A stretch of 64,000 nucleotides of DNA from an uncultured Bacilli bacterium (GTDB lineage: Bacteria; Bacillota_I; Bacilli_A; RF39; UBA660), in NCBI GenBank assembly GCA_934122275.1, contig CAKOWI010000001.1, positions 64,726 to 128,725 of the forward strand, read 5' to 3'. A program made the position numbers and the translations under genes. Position 1 is the stretch's first letter; each line of letters opens with the position of its first letter. Below the pieces are notes generated by a model. That model did no database searches, was not told the origin of the DNA, and saw only the letters and a list, made by a program, of their open reading frames with translations. Positions 16,587 to 46,094 of the stretch are shown one piece after another.

Positions 16587-16690
16587 CTCTTAAGTATTTT
16601 ATCACATAAATGTAAATTATTCATTTATATTTTATTATATTCTATATATATAACATATTTGTACGATTTTATTACCTAATATGATTATTT

Positions 16691-16719
16691 TTGTTAATTT
16701 TAATTTAGTATGATATAAT
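16691..16719 (+). promoter_or_regulatory. sigma-A promoter driving the retron ncRNA and RT
   Basis: TTGTTA (16691-16696), a 17-nt spacer, then the extended -10 TGATATAAT (16711-16719). The predicted start falls at about 16725, at the a1 repeat. Confidence 0.6.
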
Positions 16720-16723
16720 AAGA

Positions 16724-16884
16724 ATGCAGTAGTGATTGGAATTATTTTCCTACTTTAACGAGTCGTTAAGGGACTAAATTAATTAAGACGATTAAATAGT
16801 AATACTTCAAAGGACTAACCTACACGTACGTGTAGAAGCTTCGCTTAAGTCCATTTCCATATTACTATATTGTTAGTACTGCAT
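16724..16884 (+). ncRNA. retron msr-msd non-coding RNA (candidate)
   Basis: a1 ATGCAGTA (16724-16731) is the perfect reverse complement of a2 TACTGCAT (16877-16884). There are msr-like hairpins at 16738-16750 and 16755-16769. A long imperfect msd hairpin is formed by 16796-16804 / 16860-16868 and GGACT/AGTCC (16812-16816 / 16848-16852), with the apex palindrome CTACACGTACGTGTAG (16820-16835). It lies directly 5' of a retron-type RT. Confidence 0.6.
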
Positions 16885-16901
16885 ATAAAGGAGGTAGTAA
16901 A

Positions 16902-17849
16902 ATGTGGAAATACATAACAAAAAAAGAATGTAACCTATTTTTACTATCTCTTAACTTATTTAATTGTAAAGAAAAAAAGAAATATATAAAAACTATTTAT
17001 TCTATTAGTAATAACGTAGAAAAAAACTACAAAGTCTATAGAATTAGAAAAAGAAATGGAAAATATAGAACCATATATGAGCCTAACAATATTTTAAAAC
17101 AAATTCAAAAAAGAATTTTATGTAATATACTTAATAATAAGTCAATCTCAAAATATGCCAAAGCATATTATAGAGGAGCTAGTTTAAAAGAAAATGCAGT
17201 TAAACATATTAATAAAGAACTTATCTTAAAACTAGATATTAAAGATTTTTTTGAAAACATAACTTTTTTTAATGTTTATGACTCATCTTTTCCTATAGAA
17301 TACTTTCCTAAATCTGTTGGTATGCTTTTAACTTATTTATGTACTTATAATAATCACTTACCACAAGGTTCACCAACTTCTGCCTATATATCCAATTTAG
17401 TTATGAAAGAATTTGACGATGAAATAGGTTCTTGGTGTGATGAAAACAATATATCATACACAAGATATTCGGATGATATGACTTTTTCTGGTAATTTTAA
17501 TCCTAAATATGTTATAGAGAAAGTTAGAAAAATGTTATATAAACTAGGATTAAGTTTGAATAATGATAAAATACATGTAATAAATAAATCACAAAGTCAA
17601 AGTGTTACTGGAATTGTAGTAAATGAAAGAATCCAAACAAGCAAAAAATATAGAAACAAAATAAGGCAAGAAATATATTATATTAGAAAATTTGGTTTAA
17701 TTTCTCATTTAAAAAGATGTAATATTAATGTTAATTATGAAAAGTATTTAAACTCACTATATAGTAAAATTCTCTATGTTTTACAAATTGATCCAACTAA
17801 TAGCGAATTTATACTATACAAAGAATTTATCAAAGATTTAAAAAGATAA
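16902..17849 (+). CDS. retron-type reverse transcriptase
   Basis: 315 aa. RT motifs LPQGSPTSAYISNL and RYSDDMTFSG (YxDD), plus the retron-specific NAxxH (NAVKH) and VTG (QSVTGIVVNE). RBS AAAGGAGG. No maturase, endonuclease or other fused domain. Confidence 0.85.
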   Translation: MWKYITKKECNLFLLSLNLFNCKEKKKYIKTIYSISNNVEKNYKVYRIRKRNGKYRTIYEPNNILKQIQKRILCNILNNKSISKYAKAYYRGASLKENAVKHINKELILKLDIKDFFENITFFNVYDSSFPIEYFPKSVGMLLTYLCTYNNHLPQGSPTSAYISNLVMKEFDDEIGSWCDENNISYTRYSDDMTFSGNFNPKYVIEKVRKMLYKLGLSLNNDKIHVINKSQSQSVTGIVVNERIQTSKKYRNKIRQEIYYIRKFGLISHLKRCNINVNYEKYLNSLYSKILYVLQIDPTNSEFILYKEFIKDLKR

Positions 17850-17990: not shown

Positions 17991-18021
17991 AAAAACCCTT
18001 ATTTTATAAGGGTTTATTTTT
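17991..18021. terminator. bidirectional rho-independent terminator
   Basis: Stem AAACCCTTA (17993-18001) / TAAGGGTTT (18007-18015), flanked by an A-run and a T-run. Confidence 0.7.
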
Positions 18022-18024
18022 ATA

Positions 18025-18138
18025 TGGAGCGAATCACATACATGTTACGAACTAAGTTCTCTTTCTAAAAATATTATATATGTATTGTTATTAAATTTCA
18101 ATAGGCATATGGAAAAAAATGCACTTATATAGTATAAT
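18025..18138 (+). repeat. cassette left-end module L1 (tRNA-Gly 3'-end core TGGAGC + conserved promoter region)
   Basis: TGGAGC-N14-TTACGAAC-N6-CTCTTTC-N6-TATTATATA...TTCAA...TATGG...TATAAT. It is collinear with 22323-22438, with the -10 at offset about 108-110 in both copies. Confidence 0.75.
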
Positions 18139-18177
18139 TTTTATAGTTTAAAATTAGTAAAAGTTCGGAGGATATAT

Positions 18178-19599
18178 ATGAAGATAGGAATAGATATAGA
18201 TAATGTTCTATCTAATTTTAATGATGTATTATTAAACGAATATAAGAAACATGATAATGCAATAAATGGCAAAGGTATAGTTCATCAAGATTTATATATT
18301 AGAGATATGTTTAATTGGGATAAAGAATATGAAAAAAATTTTTATAAAGAAAATATTGAGTATTTTGCAAGCCTATTTGAACCGATTGAAGAATGTTCTA
18401 AATATGTAAAATTATTAAAAGAAGAAGGAAATACAATTTATATCATTAGTGGTCGAGATAATGGTGAATATTCTAACCCATATAAAATGACCATTGATTG
18501 GTTAAAAAAATATGATATTGTTTATGATAAATTATTTTTAGTAGATGCTTATAATAGTCATTCAAAAACAGAAATATGTATAGAATACAATATTGATGTA
18601 ATGATAGATGATTCTAAAAGAATGTGTAAGGACATAAAGGATAATGGTATTAGAGCATTACTTATGGATACACCATATAATAGAGATACAAATGAATTTG
18701 AAAGAGTTAATTCATGGAAAGAAATTTATAACAAATTATCTAACAAAAAAATTAATGTGATACTTGATACAGATACTTATAATGAATGTGATGACCAATT
18801 TGCATTAGCCTATTTAATTAAGTCACAAGATATGTTTAATATTGAGGCAATTACAGTAGCACCATATTCTCATACAAAAAGAGATGTAAAAGTAAAAGAT
18901 GGACAAGAATTAAGTTATAATGAAATTTTAAAGATATGTAATTGGTTAAACTTTGATACAAATAATAAGGTGTTTAAAGGTTCAATGGATTACATTCAAA
19001 ACGGTTATGATGAGAAAAATGATGCTGTAAATAAAATTATAGAAATTGCTTTAAAAAATAATAAAACTTATATATTAGGGATTGGTGCTATTACTAATAT
19101 TGCTTTAGCAATAAAAAAAGAACCAAAAATAGTAAACAAAATAGAAATTATTTGGTTAGGTGGCAATGAACTTGGCTACAAAGATAACCTTGAATACAAT
19201 TTTAGACAAGATGTTGAAGCAGTAAAAATAGTATTTGAGTCAAAAGCGAAGTTAATTATACTTCCTTGTAAAAATATTGTTTCAGAATTAAGAATTGATA
19301 TTAATACTTTAAAAAAATATTTAGAAAACAAATCAGAATTGTGTAAGTATTTAATTGAAAGATTTTATAATGATGGATATCATGGAATACAAGAATCAAG
19401 AGTAATATGGGACATAGCTGTTATAGCCTACATGATAAATAAAAATTGGTTTGAAACGAAACAAATAAGTTGTCCAAATATAAGAAAGGATACTTCTTAT
19501 GAAGTGACGGACAATAGACATAGTATTACTTTTGTTACTAAATTGGATAGAGACAAAATATACAAAGATTTATTTGAGAAACTAGGTGAATTGCAATGA
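18178..19599 (+). CDS. fusion protein: HAD/NT5C-type 5'(3')-deoxyribonucleotidase + IUNH-type nucleoside hydrolase
   Basis: 473 aa. N-terminus MKIGIDIDNVLSNF (HAD motif I DxDxV as in NT5C-family deoxyribonucleotidases) with DD later (VMIDDS). The C-terminal half starts VILDTDTYNECDDQFALAYL, which is the nucleoside hydrolase aspartate cluster DxDxxxDD. Confidence 0.75.
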   Translation: MKIGIDIDNVLSNFNDVLLNEYKKHDNAINGKGIVHQDLYIRDMFNWDKEYEKNFYKENIEYFASLFEPIEECSKYVKLLKEEGNTIYIISGRDNGEYSNPYKMTIDWLKKYDIVYDKLFLVDAYNSHSKTEICIEYNIDVMIDDSKRMCKDIKDNGIRALLMDTPYNRDTNEFERVNSWKEIYNKLSNKKINVILDTDTYNECDDQFALAYLIKSQDMFNIEAITVAPYSHTKRDVKVKDGQELSYNEILKICNWLNFDTNNKVFKGSMDYIQNGYDEKNDAVNKIIEIALKNNKTYILGIGAITNIALAIKKEPKIVNKIEIIWLGGNELGYKDNLEYNFRQDVEAVKIVFESKAKLIILPCKNIVSELRIDINTLKKYLENKSELCKYLIERFYNDGYHGIQESRVIWDIAVIAYMINKNWFETKQISCPNIRKDTSYEVTDNRHSITFVTKLDRDKIYKDLFEKLGELQ

Positions 19600-20129
19600 G
19601 CAGAATAACTTTAATAACATATTTTGATGAAAAGCAATTAGATATAATTAGTAAATTTTTAGAAAACATCAATTTGAAAATGTGTAAAGTTCCTTATGGT
19701 ATAAATGATAATAAAAGGTATGAAATTGATAATCTACCATATCATTTTACAATATTTGCAACAGATAAAATAAATCAAAATAAGTTATTAGAAATTGCAA
19801 AAAACACAAAAATGAAAAAAATAAAATTAAAAATTAATAAAGTAAAAATCGAAAATATTAAAAATGGTAGTTTTATTCTATATTTTGGAATTGAAGATAA
19901 TTGTTTTATGAAAAATCTGCAAAGGAATTTTTATGAAGTAATACCAGAAGAAAAATATAATCCTGACAATTTTAATTTTCATATGACTTTACATATAGAT
20001 AAAAGTTTTAATATAGTAAATAATCTAATTGAAATGATACAATTAAAATTTAAACCATTTTCTATTGAATTTAATAAACTAACATTATATGATTACCCTG
20101 GTGAAATAATTGAAACTATTGAATTTTAA
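19596..20129 (+). CDS. 2H phosphoesterase superfamily protein (LigT/CPDase-like)
   Basis: 177 aa with two HxT/S motifs at the expected spacing (LPYHFTIF and FNFHMTLH). Its start overlaps the upstream stop (ATGA), implying translational coupling. Confidence 0.65.
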   Translation: MSRITLITYFDEKQLDIISKFLENINLKMCKVPYGINDNKRYEIDNLPYHFTIFATDKINQNKLLEIAKNTKMKKIKLKINKVKIENIKNGSFILYFGIEDNCFMKNLQRNFYEVIPEEKYNPDNFNFHMTLHIDKSFNIVNNLIEMIQLKFKPFSIEFNKLTLYDYPGEIIETIEF

Positions 20130-20157
20130 AAAAATATTAGTAAATAAGGTGGTATAA

Positions 20158-20766
20158 ATGAAACTAAATAGTAAAGAAGCAAGAAAGCTTTTAGAAAAAG
20201 AAAGAGTTAATCAAAAAGATGATAGATGGATAGAACACTGTATATCTGTAGGTGATAGTGCTGGAAGAATTGCTAAAGCATTAAGTGAAAATAAAATTAA
20301 TGTGGACATAGATAAAGCAATTACTCTAGGGTATTTACATGATATTGGCAAGTATAATGGAGAGTCACAGGGACATGTTATGAGAGGATATGAATACTTA
20401 AAAAATAAAGGTTATGATGATGAATATGCTAACATCTGTTTGACTCATTCATATTTAAATAATGATGTAGTGTGTACAGCTGGAGGAGTTCCAAATCCAA
20501 ATGATAATACATTTTTAACAAACTTTATAAAAAATCATGAATATACTATAGAAGAAAAAATAATAAATTTATGTGATTTGATGTGTCCACAAGGAAATAA
20601 AGTATTTACAATTGATAAAAGGTTGGTTGATATAATGATTAGAAGAGGCACATATTCTAATACTCAATATCATATTAAAGAAACATATAAATTAAAAGAA
20701 TATTTTGATAATCTGTTAGGATATAATCTGTATGACTTGTTTCCGAAAATAAAAGAAAATTTATAA
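20158..20766 (+). CDS. HD-domain metal-dependent phosphohydrolase
   Basis: 202 aa with H...HD signature residues (IEHCISV ... LGYLHDIGKY ... H..LTHSY). Confidence 0.75.
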   Translation: MKLNSKEARKLLEKERVNQKDDRWIEHCISVGDSAGRIAKALSENKINVDIDKAITLGYLHDIGKYNGESQGHVMRGYEYLKNKGYDDEYANICLTHSYLNNDVVCTAGGVPNPNDNTFLTNFIKNHEYTIEEKIINLCDLMCPQGNKVFTIDKRLVDIMIRRGTYSNTQYHIKETYKLKEYFDNLLGYNLYDLFPKIKENL

Positions 20767-20966
20767 AAGGAATTGGGAACTTCCTATAATAGAATTTGTT
20801 TGTGAGTACGAATTCATTGCTGTCTAGACATAGATTTTATTCCCATATTTTCTAAAAAATCAAAAAGAGGATTAAATTATTTTCGTAATTTTTTCCTCTT
20901 TTTGATATTATTTATTATAAAATAACTCACGAACTTTTAAGCCCGTAAGTTGATTTCAAATGGAGC
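20767..20966 (+). repeat. cassette right-end module R1 (terminator module ending in the TGGAGC core)
   Basis: About 200 bp, collinear with 24127-24332 at roughly 75-80 percent identity by eye (GGGAA.T..CC.ATAAT.GAATTTGT...GAGTAC.GATTCA.TGCTG.CTAGACATAGATTTTA ... ACGAAC..TTAAG.CCGTAAGTTGATTTCAAATGGAGC). It contains the hairpin AAAGAGGA/TCCTCTTT plus a T-run. Confidence 0.8.
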
Positions 20967-21108
20967 GATTGTCGTAGTTATCTACAACTCTTTTTCAATA
21001 ACGAAAGAATACATATAATCTTCCGTTGCTAGATATAATATACCATGTTTTAAGTATTTATGTAATAATTTTTTGTTCATTTTACAATCTTTCGCACAAA
21101 TTTTAATT

Positions 21109-21843
21109 TTATTTATTAGCTATATCTATTAAATTTTCAAAATATCTAACCCTATTATCTAATGTAATTTTTATTTTATTACTATTTATCAATCTGTTTA
21201 TTAAATAAACATACAGTATATCATGTAGATATATGTTTTGTATTAATCTTCCCACTAGTTCGCATATCTTAACTTTACCCATTGATTTTAAAGTGTCTAT
21301 AATATAATCATCATAAAAATCTATTGAAACTGATTTAACATTTCCAGAATCAATCACTCTTAAGTCAGAATTTTCATCAATTAATTTGTTCCAAATATTT
21401 ACATTGTTATTTATTTCTTCATTTGTTAATTTATGCTCTAATTCAGATAAATTTTTTAGTTCTTCTTCTCTCATTACGCTAGGAGATGGATAATCATTAT
21501 TATAATCATCACAATATAGAACATATAATTCATAGTTATAATCTTTTATAATACTGCAAACATATAACATAATTAAATATGAATAAATGTCTTTTCTACC
21601 AGTCCATACTCTTATTTTATTTTTTTGTTTTATGTTATCAATAATAACATTATATTCTTGTTCAAAATTGATACTTTTGTCTTCTAAGCATAATTCTTTT
21701 GGTATACTAATTTTATGATTTCTACAATTAGATAAATCCCCTACATTAAATAAGACATTTAGCATTAGCATATTATCATTAAGTTTACTGTTTTTCATAG
21801 TATAGTAACAAGAATTTCCAAATATTATTTCCAAAGTATTCAT
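21109..21843 (-). CDS. DUF1835-like protein, unknown function
   Basis: 244 aa. The N-terminus LEIIFGNSCYYTMKNS resembles the DUF1835 start (hIvFG.SaaGsLK). This is a weak call from memory of the family. Confidence 0.4.
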   Translation of the reverse strand: MNTLEIIFGNSCYYTMKNSKLNDNMLMLNVLFNVGDLSNCRNHKISIPKELCLEDKSINFEQEYNVIIDNIKQKNKIRVWTGRKDIYSYLIMLYVCSIIKDYNYELYVLYCDDYNNDYPSPSVMREEELKNLSELEHKLTNEEINNNVNIWNKLIDENSDLRVIDSGNVKSVSIDFYDDYIIDTLKSMGKVKICELVGRLIQNIYLHDILYVYLINRLINSNKIKITLDNRVRYFENLIDIANK

Positions 21844-22322
21844 CTTTTAACAACTCCAATCATTCTCATAAATTACTATTTGTGCATCACTTTTATAATC
21901 TAATTATACTACTTTTTGATGTGTTTTAATAGTATCATTAACATATGTAATCTTCTAGTTCTACTAATTTAATTTTTTTACTTAAATTACCTATGTAAAT
22001 ATCAGTAGAGTAATTAAATGCTAGAAAAGTAGTATCATTTATAATGATTTTATGCGATTCTAGGTAGTTCAAATTAGTGTTGTTAATACGTTTGATACTA
22101 CATACTACCATTGATAATCTTTGATGTAGTGTGGCAAAACTCACAAATAAACTCTATACGTTGTTTTAAACTACTTTCCATTTCTAACTTTTGTGTAGTA
22201 AACTTTATCATAAAATGCACCATCCTTTCTTGGTTAATTCTTCTGTAAACACAAAAAATCAACCTGAACGGATTGATATATATGTTAAGTTTAAACTCTA
22301 AAAGTTCGAACAGATTCCTCAA

Positions 22323-22438
22323 TGGAGCATTTAAGCTACAGCTTACGAACCACAATGCTCTCTTTCCAAATTTATTATATAGTAATCCCCATATTTTTTC
22401 AAGGAAGTATGGGAATTTTTTGTATTTTATTGTATAAT
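22323..22438 (+). repeat. cassette left-end module L3 (TGGAGC core + conserved promoter region)
   Basis: TGGAGC-N14-TTACGAAC-N7-CTCTTTC-N6-TATTATATA...TTCAA...TATGG...TGTATAAT, homologous to 18025-18138. Confidence 0.75.
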
Positions 22439-22468
22439 AATTTCAAGAAATATCTTGGAGGTAAAAAC

Positions 22469-23272
22469 ATGACTGATGAAGCATTAGAAATCACAAAAGA
22501 AGTAGCAAAAGTTGTTGCAAAAGATTTATATAATGATGGATTAAAAGGAACTGTAACTCAAACAGGAGCAATAGTAGAATCTATTGTTGGATTATTCAAT
22601 AATGTAGTTTTTTATCCAGTAAAAAAAGCAAATGCATTATTTAAATATAAACTAGAAGATTTCAAAAATGATTTAGAAACTAGACTGAATTCTCTTCCTG
22701 ACGATAAGATAGTAGAACCCGATTTAATGGTAGCAGGTCCTGCATTAGAATCATTAAAATATACATATGATAAAGAAGAACTTAGGAATATGTATTTAAA
22801 TTTACTAGTATCTTCTATGAACAAAGATACTAAGGATAAAGCACATCCTAGTTATGTAGAAATAATTAAGCAATTAACGCCACTAGATGCTAAAGTTTTT
22901 AAAAGATTAAATGATGTCGGACAGGTTGCTTGTGCACATCCAGTTTTAAAACTTGATAATACAAATAAAGTTTACGTTTCTGCATATCCTAATTATATAG
23001 TAGAAGAATTACTTGATTTAGGTGATGAATTTGATATATCAGCATCTGTTTCTAATTTAATAAGACTAGGTTTAATTCATCATGAAGATAACAGTATAAA
23101 TGGTTATAATTATGAAAAATTTAAAAGTTTCGATATTATTATTAGAAATAAGCAAAAGCTAGATAACCTGAATAATTCTGAAGGAAATGGAATAACTACC
23201 AGTGTAGAAATTCAAAAGCAAGTTATTATGAAAAATAATTTTGGTGAACGCTTTGCTGATACTTGCTTATAA
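22469..23272 (+). CDS. Abi-alpha (DUF4393)-like abortive-infection family protein
   Basis: 267 aa from the ATG preceded by GGAGG. The pattern AKDLYNDGLKG..., PALESLKYTYDKEELRNMYLNLLVSSMN...AHPSYVEIIKQLTPLDAKVFKRL matches my recollection of the Abi_alpha consensus (..eelr..fanLLa......hPsf.eil.qLsp.eA..L). The track ORF start at 22322 lies in the repeat module and is rejected. Confidence 0.55.
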   Translation: MTDEALEITKEVAKVVAKDLYNDGLKGTVTQTGAIVESIVGLFNNVVFYPVKKANALFKYKLEDFKNDLETRLNSLPDDKIVEPDLMVAGPALESLKYTYDKEELRNMYLNLLVSSMNKDTKDKAHPSYVEIIKQLTPLDAKVFKRLNDVGQVACAHPVLKLDNTNKVYVSAYPNYIVEELLDLGDEFDISASVSNLIRLGLIHHEDNSINGYNYEKFKSFDIIIRNKQKLDNLNNSEGNGITTSVEIQKQVIMKNNFGERFADTCL

Positions 23273-23289
23273 AAAAGGGAGGCTGAATA

Positions 23290-24126
23290 ATGGACAAAAT
23301 AGCAATAATATCAGACATACATGGTAATTTAGAAGCATTAAAATCAGTATTAGATGACGTTAAAGAAAGAAATATAAATAGAATATTTTGTCTTGGGGAT
23401 ATAATTGCAAAAGGAACTCATCAACAAGAGTGTGTTGATTTAGTTAAAGAAAATTGTGATGTTATGCTTAGAGGTAATTGTGATGAATATTTTACTAGTG
23501 ATATTGATTTATTAACTAAAACACAATCAGAAGTAGATAGAATATTTTGGAACAAAAATAAATTAAATGAAGAAACTAGAAAATATTTAAGTAATTTACC
23601 TTATTGTTATGAATTTTATTTGAGTGGTAGACTTGTAAGATTAGTTCATGCACATCCTGAAAAAATAGATAAATTTGTAGGAAATATAGATAAAATTGAT
23701 AGATTGTATGAATTGTTTTTGACAAGTTCTAATACGATTTCTGATAAGAAAGCTGATGTTTTAATATATGGTCATATACATACTCCATATATTCAAAAAA
23801 TATATAATAGAACGATTATAAATACAGGCTCTGTTGGTAATGCTATTGATGTCTTTAGAAATGATGAAAAAGATGGAGATGTTAAAAATACAACTGTAGC
23901 TAATTATTTAATTTTATCTGGTAACTTTAATTCTAAAAATATTGATGAAAAAATTTCGTATGAACTAGTATGTGTACCTTATGATATAGATATGGAATTA
24001 AATGATAATGATGACAATATTGAATTTGAATCATATGAAGAAGAAATTAGAAAAGGCAAATACAGGGATATGGCGAAGATTTATAAAAGTTTTGAATTAA
24101 GAGGTATAGACAAGGATAAAATATAG
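23290..24126 (+). CDS. calcineurin-like metallophosphoesterase
   Basis: 278 aa with motifs ISDIHGN, LGDIIAKG, RGNCD and YGHIHTP. RBS GGGAGG. Confidence 0.8.
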   Translation: MDKIAIISDIHGNLEALKSVLDDVKERNINRIFCLGDIIAKGTHQQECVDLVKENCDVMLRGNCDEYFTSDIDLLTKTQSEVDRIFWNKNKLNEETRKYLSNLPYCYEFYLSGRLVRLVHAHPEKIDKFVGNIDKIDRLYELFLTSSNTISDKKADVLIYGHIHTPYIQKIYNRTIINTGSVGNAIDVFRNDEKDGDVKNTTVANYLILSGNFNSKNIDEKISYELVCVPYDIDMELNDNDDNIEFESYEEEIRKGKYRDMAKIYKSFELRGIDKDKI

Positions 24127-24332
24127 AAAATAAGGGTATGGGAATTGCCATAATGGAATTTGTACGGGAGTACAGATTCAGTGCTGGCTAGACATAGATT
24201 TTACTTTCAAATTTAAAAATATAAAAAAAGAAGATTAAATTATTTTGATAATTTTTCCCTCTTTTTTTATAGTATTTATATAAAATAAAAACTTACGAAC
24301 AATTAAGTCCGTAAGTTGATTTCAAATGGAGC
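24127..24332 (+). repeat. cassette right-end module R3, abutting and including the tRNA-Gly 3' end
   Basis: Homologous to 20767-20966. It ends in TGGAGC, which here is the genuine 3' end (GCTCCA) of tRNA-Gly. Confidence 0.8.
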
Positions 24333-24400
24333 AGGTGAGGAGAATCGAACTCCCGTATCAAGCTTGGAAGGCTTGGGTTCTACCATTAAACTACACCTGC
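24327..24400 (-). tRNA. tRNA-Gly (anticodon TCC), CCA encoded
   Basis: Reverse complement: GCAGGTG acceptor, anticodon arm CAAGC-CTTCCAA-GCTTG, T-arm GGGAG-TTCGATT-CTCCT, then CACCTGC-T-CCA. Confidence 0.9.
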
Positions 24401-24546
24401 ATCAAGTAGGCATTATTAATTATACCTATTTTTGATTTAAAGTCAATACTTTTCGAATTATTTCAAATATTTTTTGAACATAAATCCTATCTTCGTCATT
24501 GTCCCCCAGCATTAATATATTTTTAATATTAACATATATACACAAT

Positions 24547-25635
24547 TTATTCTTGATATCTAGATATATTTAAAATTATTCCCATACTAATTAATGTAAT
24601 TATTAAACTAGAGCCACCATAAGAGAAAAATGGAAGTGTAACACCAGTTACTGGAACTAAACCTACTACTACAGATAAGTTAAGTAATGTTTGAAAAGAT
24701 AACTGAAATATAATACCAAACACTAAGAATTTAGCAAATATATCTGGTGCTTTAATCGAAATTTTAATACTTCTTAAAATTATTATTAAAAATAATATTG
24801 CAACTGTTATTATTCCTAAAATTCCTAACTCTTCAGATATAATTGAAAATATAAAGTCAGTTTGAGGTTCAGGTAAATAGAAATGTTTTTGAATGGATTT
24901 ACCAAAACCAAGACCAAATAATCCACCAGGACCTATAGCATATAGAGATTGTATAGCTTGAAATCCAGTTCCTAAAGGATCACTCCACGGGTTTAAAAAA
25001 GAAACTATTCTCTCCATTCTATATGGTGCCATTATTATAAGAATAACTGCCCCTACTATACCTATCATTCCAAGCTTAATAAAGAAAGAAAAATTAACGC
25101 CAGATATAAAAAGCATAGCTACTATTGTTAATACTAAAATTGTTCCAGTTCCAAAATCTGGTTGTAACATAATAAGTCCAAAAGTAAACATAGTTACAAG
25201 TAAAATTGGAAAAGCTCCCTTTGTTACCGTTTTCATTTGTTTTGGATTATTATATATATATTTACTAGTAAATATTATTAGTGCAAGTTTCATAAACTCA
25301 CTAGGTTGAACACCAAGTCCACCTATTCCAAACCAGCTTCTAGAACCGTTTCTTACTGTACCTATTCCCGGTATTAAAACTAAAACCAATAAAATTAAGC
25401 AAATAAATAGTATAGTATTTGATTTTTTTAGATAATAAGTATATGGTATCTTACTTACAATTATCATTAATACAATACCCATTAAAAAAAAGGCACTTTG
25501 CATTATAACGTAATGCAGTTTATCATTAAACTTATACTCTGCCCACACACTAGATGCAGAATAAATCATTATTATTCCATATACACAAATTAAAAATACG
25601 GTTATTATTAATTTTATATCCAGTTTATTTTTCAA
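24547..25635 (-). CDS. FtsW/RodA/SpoVE-family peptidoglycan glycosyltransferase
   Basis: 362 aa, about 10 TM segments. Motifs QPSEFMKL, PDFGT and LPVTGVTLPFFSYGGSS. Confidence 0.85.
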   Translation of the reverse strand: MKNKLDIKLIITVFLICVYGIIMIYSASSVWAEYKFNDKLHYVIMQSAFFLMGIVLMIIVSKIPYTYYLKKSNTILFICLILLVLVLIPGIGTVRNGSRSWFGIGGLGVQPSEFMKLALIIFTSKYIYNNPKQMKTVTKGAFPILLVTMFTFGLIMLQPDFGTGTILVLTIVAMLFISGVNFSFFIKLGMIGIVGAVILIIMAPYRMERIVSFLNPWSDPLGTGFQAIQSLYAIGPGGLFGLGFGKSIQKHFYLPEPQTDFIFSIISEELGILGIITVAILFLIIILRSIKISIKAPDIFAKFLVFGIIFQLSFQTLLNLSVVVGLVPVTGVTLPFFSYGGSSLIITLISMGIILNISRYQE

Positions 25636-25704
25636 CTATTTCATCTCCTATTACTAATTAAAAATATTCTAAATAAGCAAAAAAAAGAACGCATTAAACG
25701 TCTT

Positions 25705-27186
25705 TTATAACTTAAAACTTATAGAAAATAGTACACCATCACCCTTATTTATAACCTTACAATTTCCTTCATGCAAATCTACAATTGCACGTGTTATTGT
25801 AAGTCCAAGCCCAGTTCCTTCTTTATTTCTTGAACTTTTATCTTTATAATAAGAATTAAATATGTTTTCTAAATTTTTATCACTAATATTATCACCTGTA
25901 TTAAATACATCATAATAGAAATAATTATCTTTAATATAAGTATCTATTTTTATTACTTTATCATATTTGCAGAACTTTATTGCATTAGTTAATATATTTT
26001 CTACAACCTTTGTAAACTGTTTTTTATCCAAGTAAACTTCCTTATAATCTCTTATACTCTTTTTCACTGTTATGTTACTATTAACTAATTTAACATTTAA
26101 CTTTTTTAGTTCCTCTTCTATAACATCTTTAGCATTAAATTTTTCTTTATTTAATTTTATATTTCCACTTTCTAATTTTGATAATTCTAAAAACTCATAG
26201 ACTAAATCACTTAATCTTTCAGATTCACTAATAATTAAATCTACATTCTCTTTATTTTCTTTTCCCTTAACTTCATCTTTTAATAACTGTCCATAACCTG
26301 AAATTATAGTAAGTGGTGTTTTAAATTCATGTGAGATATTTGCAATTAGTTTCTTTCTAGCAGTTTCTTGTTTTTCTTTTTCTATCAAATCTTGTTTAAG
26401 CTTATAATTAGCTTCTTCTAGCTCTTTAATAGTTTCTTCAAGCTTATCACTCATTTTATTAACATTGTTAAATAAATCGCCTAATTCATCATTAGAATTA
26501 ATTGATATTTTTTTATCAAATCTCATATTAGATATGTCATCAGTTACATCTTTTATTTCATCTATTTTTCTTCCAAAAAGTTTAGATATAAAATAAGAAA
26601 TAATAAGTAATATTAAAAATGTAATAACAGAAGTTAATAAAATTATAACCAAAGTTGTACTAGCATCCTTCTTTAAAGATTCAATAGAAGAAGATATTAT
26701 AGTGTAATTATCATCTATTTTTCCAATTAAATGAAGATCATAACCATTTTCATAATAGTTTTTTAATATTATAATTTCACTTTCTTTATCTTTTAAACTA
26801 TCTAATAATATTAAATCTAAACTAGTAAATTTACTTCTTGTTTGCTCATTTAAAATACTATATGTTAAATTATAGTCTCTATCAAATACTTTTACTTTAA
26901 TTCCTCTATCATTTGCATTATATATAATATTTACTAACTCATCTTCATCTTTGTAATTTCTTTTCACATGATAATATTCTCTTTTTAACTCTCTTTTTTC
27001 TAGCCATAAATAAATATCATTAATTGATAACTTAACTACAATAAAATTAATTAATATATTTAATATAACAAATAATCCAACTAGAAAGAATACTTTAGTT
27101 CTAATTGATACTCTTTTATTTTTATACTTATTTAATAAAAACGTACCCTGTTCCTGAATATGTCTTAATATATTTTTTTTCTTCAT
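25705..27186 (-). CDS. sensor histidine kinase (2 TM, HAMP, HisKA, HATPase_c)
   Basis: 493 aa with H-box ISHEFKTPLT, N-box NAIKF and G-box GTGLGLTI. The annotated start overlaps the upstream response regulator by 59 nt. Confidence 0.85.
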   Translation of the reverse strand: MKKKNILRHIQEQGTFLLNKYKNKRVSIRTKVFFLVGLFVILNILINFIVVKLSINDIYLWLEKRELKREYYHVKRNYKDEDELVNIIYNANDRGIKVKVFDRDYNLTYSILNEQTRSKFTSLDLILLDSLKDKESEIIILKNYYENGYDLHLIGKIDDNYTIISSSIESLKKDASTTLVIILLTSVITFLILLIISYFISKLFGRKIDEIKDVTDDISNMRFDKKISINSNDELGDLFNNVNKMSDKLEETIKELEEANYKLKQDLIEKEKQETARKKLIANISHEFKTPLTIISGYGQLLKDEVKGKENKENVDLIISESERLSDLVYEFLELSKLESGNIKLNKEKFNAKDVIEEELKKLNVKLVNSNITVKKSIRDYKEVYLDKKQFTKVVENILTNAIKFCKYDKVIKIDTYIKDNYFYYDVFNTGDNISDKNLENIFNSYYKDKSSRNKEGTGLGLTITRAIVDLHEGNCKVINKGDGVLFSISFKL

Positions 27187-27772
27187 CTATTTTCTTTCTT
27201 ATTCTTTTTATATTAGTATCAACTACCCTATCATCACCAAAGTAATCTATTCCCCACACTCTATCTAATATTTGATCCCTTGTTAATACAACATTAGGAT
27301 TACTAAAGAAATATTCTAAAATTAGATATTCTTTTTTAGTCAATTTTATCATCTTACCATTTTTCTTAATAGCTCTTTGTTCCTTGACTAATTCTAAGTT
27401 ATTGGTATTTTCTATATCTATTAATTTCTTTATTCTCAATAATAATATTTCTAAATTAAATGGCTTTGTTATATAATCACTTGCACCACTTTCTAATCCA
27501 TCTATTTCATCTTCATCTTCACTTTTTGCAGTTAACATTATAATTGGCACATCACTTACTTTTCTTATTTCTTTAGTAGCTGCTACACCATCCATTTCTG
27601 GCATCATAACATCCATTAATATAAGATCTATATTGTCTTTATTCTTATTAAATAGTTCTACACCTTTTAAACCATTTTCAGCTTCTACACACCTAATATT
27701 ATATTTACTTAAATATTTACTTATTATTGTTCTTATTTGTTTTTCATCTTCTACTATCAATACTTTAATCAT
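27128..27772 (-). CDS. OmpR-family response regulator
   Basis: 214 aa. Receiver domain (VEDE, phospho-acceptor Asp in LILMDVMMP, LTAK) plus a winged-helix output (LTKKEYLILEYF...GTGYVF). Confidence 0.85.
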   Translation of the reverse strand: MIKVLIVEDEKQIRTIISKYLSKYNIRCVEAENGLKGVELFNKNKDNIDLILMDVMMPEMDGVAATKEIRKVSDVPIIMLTAKSEDEDEIDGLESGASDYITKPFNLEILLLRIKKLIDIENTNNLELVKEQRAIKKNGKMIKLTKKEYLILEYFFSNPNVVLTRDQILDRVWGIDYFGDDRVVDTNIKRIRKKIDEEKKYIKTYSGTGYVFIK

Positions 27773-27863
27773 AGCATCACCTCTATTAGCTATACTATTA
27801 TATATATTTGTTTAAAATGTGTCAAAATTAGTAATTAGTATTATGAGTCAAAAAAAGAAGAAA

Positions 27864-45860: not shown

Positions 45861-45882
45861 AAACCCTCAAAGGTAAGGGTTT
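45861..45882. terminator. hairpin terminator flanking the tRNA fragment
   Basis: AAACCCT / AGGGTTT stem with flanking A/T runs. This is the same tRNA-end-plus-terminator architecture seen at 17991-18030. Confidence 0.5.
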
Positions 45883-45893
45883 GCTTCTTAATA

Positions 45894-45917
45894 TGGTGAC
45901 GCGTATGGGATTTGAAC
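45894..45917 (-). repeat. orphan 24-nt tRNA 3' fragment = prophage attachment-site remnant
   Basis: The reverse complement GTTCAAATCCCATACGCGTCACCA is a T-loop half, acceptor 3' strand and CCA. The upstream sequence cannot complete a tRNA. Confidence 0.65.
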
Positions 45918-46094
45918 TATATATAATTTTAAAGTTTGTTGCTATATAAGGTTTTGCTGAATTTTTCTTTATTCTACAACGTTTTAATATAGTCTTAATG
46001 TCAATGTCACATTGTTTAAATCAATACTAGTTTGACATGAAACAAGACCAAAACAAGACCAAAGTTAAGAAAAAAACATTGACACAAAATTTAT

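Follow-up and report, generated by a model that had tools for sequence, protein, structure and literature searches.

Large serine recombinases insert the staphylococcal cassette chromosome mec (SCCmec) at the 3′ end of a conserved gene, and cassettes without a recombinase, such as the ccr-less pseudo-SCC, can be moved by Ccr in trans. Tandem accretion of integrative elements and cis-mobilisable elements (CIMEs) has been described in Firmicutes, both in the ICESt1/ICESt3 model (PMC5704250) and for tandems in Faecalibacterium (PMC12084326). In Dehalococcoides, the CcrB-like serine recombinase DsiB is associated with tandem islands at the 3′ end of the small-RNA gene ssrA; 15 islands without the integration module were read by the authors as cis-mobilisable (PMC3146451, in which the role of CcrB is also summarised). 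Here we analyse a 64-kb stretch of contig CAKOWI010000001.1 from an uncultured Bacilli bacterium (hereafter the window; G+C content ∼25-30%), in which a tRNA-Gly(tcc) gene is separated from its original flank by an array that very probably consists of three recombinase-less integrative elements, or cis-mobilisable cassettes, in tandem.

The array is organised around the hexamer TGGAGC, the reverse complement of the tRNA-Gly 3′ end GCTCCA, which is found on the plus strand at 18025, 20961, 22323 and 24327. These four same-strand copies in 6.3 kb compare with ∼0.2 expected (shuffled sequences gave 8.85 per 128 kb on both strands), and homologous end modules flank every copy. The fourth copy (24327-24332) is the end of the tRNA-Gly gene itself (24327-24400, minus strand). 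The other copies delimit cassette 1 (18031-20966), cassette 2 (20967-22328) and cassette 3 (22329-24332), units of 1.4-2.9 kb. Copy 1 (18025..18030, plus strand) joins the chromosomal flank, B, to a left end of the type denoted Le and marks the distal boundary of the array; copy 2 (20961..20966, plus strand) is an R1-Lc junction and copy 3 (22323..22328, plus strand) an R2-Le junction, junction classes that were counted 10 times in all and 7 times, respectively.

The right modules of cassettes 1 and 3 (20767-20966 and 24127-24332) share homology along ∼200 bp and end in 24 identical bases, and no further copy of either part was present in the window, where chance alone predicts 0 matches. The left modules of the same cassettes (18031-18160 and 22329-22460) are collinear, with TTACGAAC, CTCTTTC, ATTATATA, TTTCAA and TATAAT at matching offsets; the TATAAT boxes, at 18133-18138 and 22433-22438, lie at offsets 108 and 110. 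A preliminary description of the locus had already reported the four repeats, the ∼200-bp right module and the collinear left modules with a -10 box at offset ∼108-110, and all three observations were reproduced, the left module now having 24 members in the Le family. The same description had taken TTACGAAC repeats around the cores for possible recombinase-binding sites. Enrichment of the motif stood up to scrutiny (5 copies in the window versus 0.64 expected, 3 of the 5 inside the array); its right-module copy, on the other hand, turned out to be one arm of the terminator hairpin.

To the left of copy 1, the B flank carries a terminator-like hairpin (17993..18015, plus strand; AAACCCTTATTTTATAAGGGTTT followed by a T run), which is probably the original terminator downstream of both the tRNA-Gly gene and a retron-type reverse transcriptase (RT) gene. 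The same layout of a hairpin, ∼10 nt and TGGAGC was found elsewhere at 20 unoccupied tRNA sites and 14 B-Le junctions in the loci listed from other genomes. The array has the retron-type RT gene on its left and, on its right, tRNA-Gly followed by rodA.

As previously noted, there is no integrase or other recombinase in the array: Pfam scans of all its open reading frames (ORFs) identified none. When the serine recombinase, tyrosine integrase, TnpV, Mob and small-ORF sequences were compared with the whole 64-kb window by tblastn, the only match was a frameshifted remnant of a small ORF, c11, in cassette 2.

To place the end modules in a wider context, we searched the one-genome-per-species GTDB collection and IMG/VR with the terminal 22 bases of right module and core (GTAAGTTGATTTCAAATGGAGC). 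This R1+core 22-mer was matched by at least 119 stretches from GTDB species genomes, as well as by 10 IMG/VR contigs, and the hosts were labelled as uncultured gut Bacilli, Clostridia and Tenericutes-like metagenome-assembled genomes. The counts of junctions, tRNA genes and end types that follow were taken among the matches listed for this search; L plus a number denotes a compared locus, contig or assembly. In nearly all R1 copies, ∼56 nt upstream of the core are conserved. What follows R1 and the core is either a tRNA-Gly or tRNA-Thr gene ending in GCTCCA or one of ∼10 recurrent left-end types. Among the 72 tRNA genes directly after R1 there were 43 Gly-tcc, 11 Gly-gcc, 2 Gly-ccc, 10 Thr-cgt and 6 Thr-ggt genes, and all 72 end in GCTCCA; no tRNA of the same loci with another 3′ end adjoins an R1 module. 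The junction census, in which 70 junctions were classed as R1-tRNA, found every junction centred on a TGGAGC-like hexamer (at most 1 mismatch). Comparable tandem arrays were seen at L071, L126, L024 and L026.

Three end families besides R1 matter for the window. Le, the type at 18031 and 22329, is represented by 24 copies with common landmarks, and 23 of them contain an outward promoter-like site. The left module at 20967, previously considered a diverged version of the same sequence, is not a degraded copy and belongs to the separate family Lc (13 distinct copies). Likewise, the supposedly shortened right module before 22323 is a member of its own family, R2, with 11 distinct copies, in which GTTCGAAC and ∼11 nt precede TGGAGC; R2 adjoins tRNA-Gly in L069, L085 and L096. 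The division into three cassettes, with homologous ends on cassettes 1 and 3, remains valid, with the refinement that two element families are interleaved.

The protein found most often when all ORFs of the R1 loci were clustered (not every cluster was annotated) is a large serine recombinase, ∼596 aa long, in which Resolvase, Recombinase and Zn_ribbon_recom domains are combined. At 12 or more loci its gene is found at the same distance from the core (-2367..-580), with transcription directed away from the core; upstream of the gene, at -372..-97, lies c1, an ORF of 92 aa, and TnpV (PF14198) follows the gene. Complete family-1 elements, bounded by Le and R1, were found in L027 (4168 bp) and L010 (5163 bp). 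Between two cores, they are composed of Le, cargo and a 135-nt backbone module, all read from the left, followed by tnpV, the recombinase gene and c1, which are read in the opposite direction from R1; the right end is thus the start of the recombinase operon. Family 2 is represented by a complete element in L069 (4822 bp), which runs from Lc through Mob_Pre, tnpV, the serine recombinase and c11 to R2. Complete elements of both families measure 4.2-5.2 kb. TnpV occurs in both, the Mob relaxase in family 2 alone, and a transfer origin (oriT) was not identified in them.

The catalytic domain of the recombinase is closest, among solved structures, to that of the TP901-1 integrase (6e-20; TnpX 1e-7), and no DUF4368 match was obtained for the recombinase of the sibling elements. 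More than 120 clusters in a collection of 5.8 billion proteins match the recombinase at 88-98% identity; none of them has a specific name, and the pattern points to a recent spread. A match to plasmid-borne recombinases was set aside, its identity being only ∼28% and its annotation uninformative. Most relatives of the complete elements are devoid of the enzyme: in the loci listed, it is missing from 21 of 23 delimited Le..R1 elements, 1.3-3.6 kb long, and from 47 of the 60 R1 sites for which 2.6 kb or more of upstream sequence was available. HUH or DDE transposases were absent from the annotated protein clusters of these loci, not every cluster being annotated. One locus departs from the family-1 layout: in L149 (1-4172), recombinase and TnpV are followed ∼260 nt further on by a terminator, TGGAGC and an Le junction in the same reading direction, which may reflect an inversion or a hybrid element.

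These complete elements provide a framework for the origin of the window's cassettes. The Le/R1 ends of cassettes 1 and 3 and the Lc/R2 ends of cassette 2 are the ends of L027, L010 and L069, so that the end modules are, by every indication, ends of mobile elements and not a local oddity. The right module of the window can be divided by reference to complete family-1 elements: its first 135 nt match a segment that these carry between cargo and the 3′ end of tnpV, and its last ∼65 nt correspond to R1; the 200-bp module is evidently a composite in which the backbone module is fused to the att half-site R1. In L027, the tnpV-recombinase-c1 block is flanked by an 11-bp direct repeat, TTTATATAAAA, and a deletion between the two copies, as read from the sequence, reproduces exactly the junction of cassettes 1 and 3. 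By this comparison, cassettes 1 and 3 are family-1 (Le/R1) deletion derivatives without the tnpV-recombinase-c1 block. The Lc left end of cassette 2 also bounds the recombinase-bearing element L069, and in complete family 2 c11 is situated between R2 and the serine recombinase gene. Cassette 2 is, to all appearances, a decayed family-2 (Lc/R2) member that has lost recombinase, tnpV and Mob and kept a broken c11. The earlier proposal of cis-mobilisable cassettes accreted at one att core is supported in that the same ends bound recombinase-carrying elements elsewhere.

Comparison between species supports the view that such cassettes are mobile units, as judged from their sequences. Cassette 1 recurs in seven other species with 77-95% nucleotide identity from the core onward (L008, L034, L026, L090 and L118 among them). 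In L008 the homology begins at 18019, at the core, and the copy adjoins a different tRNA; it is otherwise collinear but without the 2H phosphoesterase gene (19596-20129), which indicates that cargo also changes by gain or loss of single genes inside a cassette. A YhcG-nuclease cassette is 96.8% identical between L041 and L056 and 94.9% identical between L041 and L016, with homology beginning at TGGAGC and with unrelated left and right neighbours in the three species. Near-identical cassettes beside different neighbours imply that recombinase-less units travel, alone or with a neighbour. In line with the proposal that the cassettes are units, the same ones were found beside other tRNAs in further species, and there TGGAGC marks the point where homology breaks off. 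Those of the window could be moved only if a related element in the cell supplied the recombinase.

Within the species group, assemblies were retrieved by exact-protein look-ups with RodA, CNNM, RT and Abi_alpha. In L007 (RodA 100% identical, 97.4% nucleotide identity), an R2-like end and another gene come directly after ...GCTCCA. In L003-L006 (98% identical to 24448-27834), homology ends at 24448, 48 nt upstream of tRNA-Gly; L003 continues in unrelated sequence, and all four contigs end within ∼55 nt of 24448. The tRNA-Gly gene and the whole array may be missing or replaced there. Of the assemblies compared at this locus, L007 has different DNA after the tRNA, and three others keep the same order. 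The 2087-bp contig L143 was considered as a free cassette and rejected as an ordinary fragment that breaks in a repeat. A search of JGI metagenome contigs for an unfilled or otherwise occupied site, made with the chromosomal flank plus core (TAAGGGTTTATTTTTATATGGAGC), gave 0 matches, and the species therefore seems absent from that collection.

How the array could have formed is suggested by serine-integrase and Tn4451 biology (PMC5704250, PMC3158075). The serine recombinase of a complete element would join the circular site, made up of R, core and L, to a TGGAGC-centred target, with exchange at a dinucleotide inside TGGAGC. The target would be either the boundary between the terminator and the GCTCCA end of a tRNA-Gly or tRNA-Thr gene or the R-tRNA junction of an earlier insertion, and use of the latter would yield tandem arrays. 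Each newcomer would land beside the tRNA and displace older elements outward, an order of events that would make cassette 1 the oldest, followed by cassettes 2 and 3. Such an insertion would keep the tRNA intact, swap its terminator for the R1 hairpin and supply the cargo with a promoter and a terminator. Host-specific tRNA bases after TGGAGC and element bases before it place the exchange point within or at the edge of the hexamer. In addition, all left-end types have a YRAAMC-like motif at ∼+17..+22, and the TCGAAC of the tRNA T-arm sits ∼4 bp closer; together with a dyad around the core, such features are hints of a recombinase site.

Several observations weigh against this scheme. The dyad symmetry around the core is partial (GTCCGTAAGTTG at -22 faces CAAGTTACGAAC at +12; 13 of 25 positions match), and unoccupied tRNA sites show no sequence conservation in their natural left half, an uncommon situation for a serine-integrase attB. 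Some elements combine end types, La, Lc and Le being paired with R1 and Lc, Lf, Lg and Li with R2, and the pairing of ends and recombinases is consequently not simple. The link between recombinase and ends rests on co-location, and the recombinase search covered the 64-kb window. The three other assemblies covering the array have the same cassette order, the remaining ones have contig breaks, and L007 alone differs. No circular form, empty site or changed cassette number was seen in this species, and four recombinase-bearing contigs of 4.1-5.1 kb contained neither a terminal overlap nor an R-L joint. The last of these points, together with the lack of a recombinase in 64 kb, the visible decay of cassette 2 and the identical three-cassette order in every assembly of the strain group that spans the array, would equally be expected if the cassettes were fixed relics: they would share the origin outlined above, having arrived as recombinase-bearing elements or next to such elements, but would since have degenerated where they lie and lost the capacity for excision or movement. 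We regard such fixation as a real possibility, though one we would not favour: cassettes 1 and 3 have kept intact end modules that deviate little from the family consensus, near-identical cassettes exist in different species with different neighbours, and the recombinase occurs in the same habitat in great abundance, after a recent spread.

The other explanations fare less well. It is usually tyrosine integrases that exploit tRNA 3′ ends, and six loci have a tyrosine integrase within 3.6 kb to the right of the R1 core; a tRNA-targeting or integron-type tyrosine recombinase might accordingly serve the cassettes, with the serine elements merely sharing the site. Four of these six integrases (L128, L130, L131 and L135), however, lie beyond truncated tRNA copies and thus belong to prophage-like elements inserted in the tRNA body, not at TGGAGC. 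No tyrosine integrase is located inside any Le..R1 or Lc..R2 element, where the serine recombinase keeps a fixed distance from R1 or R2, and a shared core of 6 bp without further identity fits a serine recombinase better. Service by a tyrosine recombinase is very improbable, and the likely acting enzyme is a large serine recombinase. We consider it just as hard to believe that the modules are a dispersed regulatory repeat, a terminator/promoter unit spread by homologous recombination or by transposition of the single-strand kind or of the kind of miniature inverted-repeat transposable elements, with no site-specific recombination. The ends are indeed rich in hairpins and do supply promoters and terminators, but the junctions all centre on a TGGAGC-like hexamer, R1 always precedes a tRNA or a left end among the matches listed, and neither target duplications nor transposon-type terminal inverted repeats are present. 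Moreover, the annotated recurrent clusters comprise serine recombinase, TnpV, Mob and cargo, with no HUH or DDE enzyme among them. The objection, raised at the outset, that the repeats might be unrelated to tRNA genes fails for the same reason, the repeat being dispersed across species but R1 always adjoining the 3′ end of a tRNA-Gly or tRNA-Thr gene or the end of an element. Finally, local segmental duplication downstream of the tRNA with later divergence would explain two 200-bp copies 3.4 kb apart; it is already refuted by the occurrence of the same modules around unrelated cargo in more than 100 species and retains a negligible probability. Tandem integration of recombinase-less elements is the reading we retain.

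In five IMG/VR contigs (L128, L130, L131, L133 and L135), only a truncated tRNA copy is found to the right of the R1 core, with a length of 11-12 nt in L131 and L133 and a greater one in L128 and L130; a tyrosine integrase gene comes after it in L128, L130, L131 and L135. Prophage-like elements that target the body of the tRNA thus make use of the same tRNA-Gly and tRNA-Thr genes.

The genes of the array were assigned by Pfam scans of all ORFs, with PADLOC for defence families. Cassette 1 starts with its Le module (18031..18177), in which TTACGAAC at +14 and CTCTTTC are accompanied by two promoter-like sites, one directed outward (18101..18073, minus strand; TTGAAA-17-TATAAT, 11 of 12 positions matching) and one facing the cargo (18110-18138; TGGAAA-17-TATAAT). 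The cargo consists of three plus-strand genes, encoding a fusion of a 5′-nucleotidase (NT5C) with an inosine-uridine nucleoside hydrolase (18178..19599), the 2H/LigT-like phosphoesterase (19596..20129) and an HD-domain phosphohydrolase (20158..20766). They are followed by the distal backbone module (20767..20905), with the conserved hairpin GAATTTGT..ACGAATTC, the motif TTGCTGTCTAGACA and a bidirectional terminator hairpin, and by the R1 segment (20906..20960), a putative recombinase half-site with a terminator-like hairpin on the minus strand (20951..20924).

Cassette 2 opens with Lc (20967..21108), which contains the hairpin GTCGTAG-TTAT-CTACAAC at 20971-20988. Its single cargo gene encodes a DUF1835/DUF3658 protein (21109..21843, minus strand) and is followed by the frameshifted c11 remnant (21944..22211, minus strand), recognised by tblastn in two pieces (22211-22101 and 22099-21944, E down to 3e-24). 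The R2 segment (22212..22322) has GTTCGAAC at 22304-22311 and then AGATTCCTCAA. In cassette 3, the Le module (22329..22468) again carries an outward promoter-like site (22402..22374, minus strand; TTGAAA-17-TATAAT, 11 of 12) and an inward -10 box at 22433-22438. Two plus-strand genes encode an Abi_alpha protein (22469..23272), assigned by PADLOC to the candidate defence family PDC-S47 (9e-60), and a calcineurin-like metallophosphoesterase (23290..24126). The cassette ends with the backbone module (24127..24262; hairpin GAATTTGTA..TACAGATTC, motif AGTGCTGGCTAGACA and bidirectional terminator) and the R1 segment (24263..24326), in which a minus-strand hairpin at 24317..24290 is followed by a T run. 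The tRNA-Gly gene has a promoter-like site of its own at 24419..24446 on the minus strand (TTGACT-16-TATAAT).

Both R1 copies, read on the tRNA strand, fold into a hairpin with 11-12 pairs ahead of the T run. We infer that this hairpin acts as a replacement terminator for tRNA-Gly, the original one now being at the far end of the array, and that, in a circle or an array, the outward Le promoter would read over the core into the neighbouring right end. In the window, the outward promoter-like site of cassette 3 points into the minus-strand genes of cassette 2. The idea of an antiterminator, in which the Le copy of GTTCGTAAG would compete with the R1 terminator hairpin in the transcript across the joint, was dropped because minimum-energy folds keep the R1 terminator in every context. 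In 38 aligned copies, the backbone module displays a covarying hairpin of 10 bp, one pair of which is altered in both of its bases in 9 of the 38, a nearly invariant AGTGCTGGCTAGACA after it and then the bidirectional terminator; extra GCTA repeats occur at the AGTGCTGGCTAGACA position in L044, L056, L041 and L035. The modules had no match in Rfam at gathering or relaxed thresholds. The 135-nt module could be a nick site, a transfer origin or a protein-binding site; the second role was considered because family 1 is without a relaxase, and a candidate nick position may lie near AGTGCTGGCTAG.

Three further features lie outside the array proper. The retron-type RT gene (16902-17849, 315 aa), between a CNNM gene and the array, matched the PADLOC profiles RT_Ec107-like (4e-126) and RT_III-A (9e-104), with no recognisable retron effector beside it in 16587-17849. 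Two Logan assemblies break just upstream of it, at 16749-16775 (contigs L139/L140 versus L146/L147), which may reflect a repeat, the retron non-coding RNA or strain heterogeneity. Within 45862-45920, TGGTGACGCGTATGGGATTTGAAC comes after a terminator-like hairpin (AAAAACCCTCAAAGGTAAGGGTTT) and reads as a 3′ tRNA fragment (T-arm, acceptor and CCA) with the remainder of the gene missing; ARAGORN calls no tRNA there, and the fragment may be the far boundary of another integrated element. Elsewhere, an Le..R1 cassette in L126 (3642-5951) carries a radical-SAM/SPASM protein and a homologue of 5-hydroxymethyldeoxyuridine (5-hmdU) DNA kinase (PF18723, 4e-108), a pair of the DNA-hypermodification type.

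Set against known systems, the array shares most with CIMEs: its members have family-type ends and no recombination or transfer genes of their own, and they lie side by side at one att site. As in CIMEs, ends of the attL/attR type are kept, recombination and transfer genes are lost, tandems form at one att site at a gene 3′ end, and the proposed mechanism has a newcomer integrate into the att site beside a resident. Classical CIMEs depend on tyrosine integrases, have longer identity segments and span tens of kb, whereas the cassettes described here are 1.4-2.9 kb long, are associated with a serine recombinase and, unlike classical CIMEs, carry standard promoter, terminator and backbone modules. 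Of the serine recombinase systems at small-RNA genes, the Dehalococcoides ssrA islands come nearest by analogy. These differ in their transfer-messenger RNA (tmRNA) target, their 20-bp direct repeat, a six-gene integration module, a much larger size and their restriction to a single genus; the present family uses the GCTCCA end of tRNA-Gly and tRNA-Thr, shares 6 bp and occurs in more than 100 species. SCCmec and pseudo-SCC likewise form arrays of recombinase-less cassettes bounded by repeated integration-site sequences, but at rlmH (orfX), with far larger cassettes and with other recombinases (CcrAB, CcrC) and ends.

The outward Le promoter, which would read the recombinase operon across the joint, recalls Tn4451, for which a joint promoter has reportedly been found. 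Elements of the Tn4451/Tn4453 and Tn6104 types resemble the complete elements in combining a large serine recombinase with TnpV and sometimes Mob_Pre in ∼4-6 kb (PMC5704250, PMC3158075). Tn4451 exchanges strands at a core of 2 bp, a role that dinucleotides within TGGAGC could fill; the insertion of Tn4451 shows little specificity (PMC5704250), in contrast to the present elements, which are specific for GCTCCA-ending tRNAs. The recombinase of the sibling elements also differs from the Tn4451-type TnpX in lacking a DUF4368 match and in its weak similarity (1e-7), and in the 64-kb window the Tn4451-type gene set of TnpX-type recombinase, TnpV and Mob_Pre is absent altogether.

The integron-like logic that the preliminary description had seen in the array holds as a likeness, not as membership. 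Both systems stack small units of 1-3 genes that end in a conserved recombination module, with the newest beside the entry site, and both have diverse cargo that includes candidate defence genes. IntI, attI and attC are absent here, the cassettes carry their own promoters, and the serine recombinase resides on sibling elements rather than next to the array; no attC-type structure was seen at the cassette ends, and the entry site is a tRNA 3′ end. It is conceivable, if still somewhat speculative, that the elements make up an undescribed integron-like cassette system of uncultured low-G+C gut Firmicutes, in which one conserved serine recombinase services a pool of standardised mini-cassettes in more than 100 species at tRNA-Gly and tRNA-Thr genes ending in GCUCCA and so shuttles accessory and anti-phage genes. 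A mini-cassette in this sense comprises a left end with divergent promoters, 1-3 cargo genes, the 135-nt module as a possible transfer origin and a right end with a second function as terminator of the tRNA. If the accretion reading is right, the locus would be a concrete and very widespread instance of att-site accretion in never-cultured gut bacteria, in which cassettes of 1.3-3.6 kb with standard ends, promoters and terminators outnumber their autonomous parents. With a cargo ranging from candidate defence genes (Abi_alpha/PDC-S47) to nucleotide-processing enzymes and transporters, it would help to explain how tRNA genes come to have small defence and accessory genes collected beside them, and the pair of recombinase and site (a 6-bp core with arms of roughly 60 nt) could be tried as a genetic tool in these organisms.

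Taken together, the accretion of decayed elements at one att site is an already known principle. No description of the present element family turned up in the literature searched, and what is new is this particular family: a serine recombinase probably aimed at tRNA-Gly and tRNA-Thr genes ending in GCUCCA, miniature standard cassettes, and a very wide distribution in uncultured gut Firmicutes.

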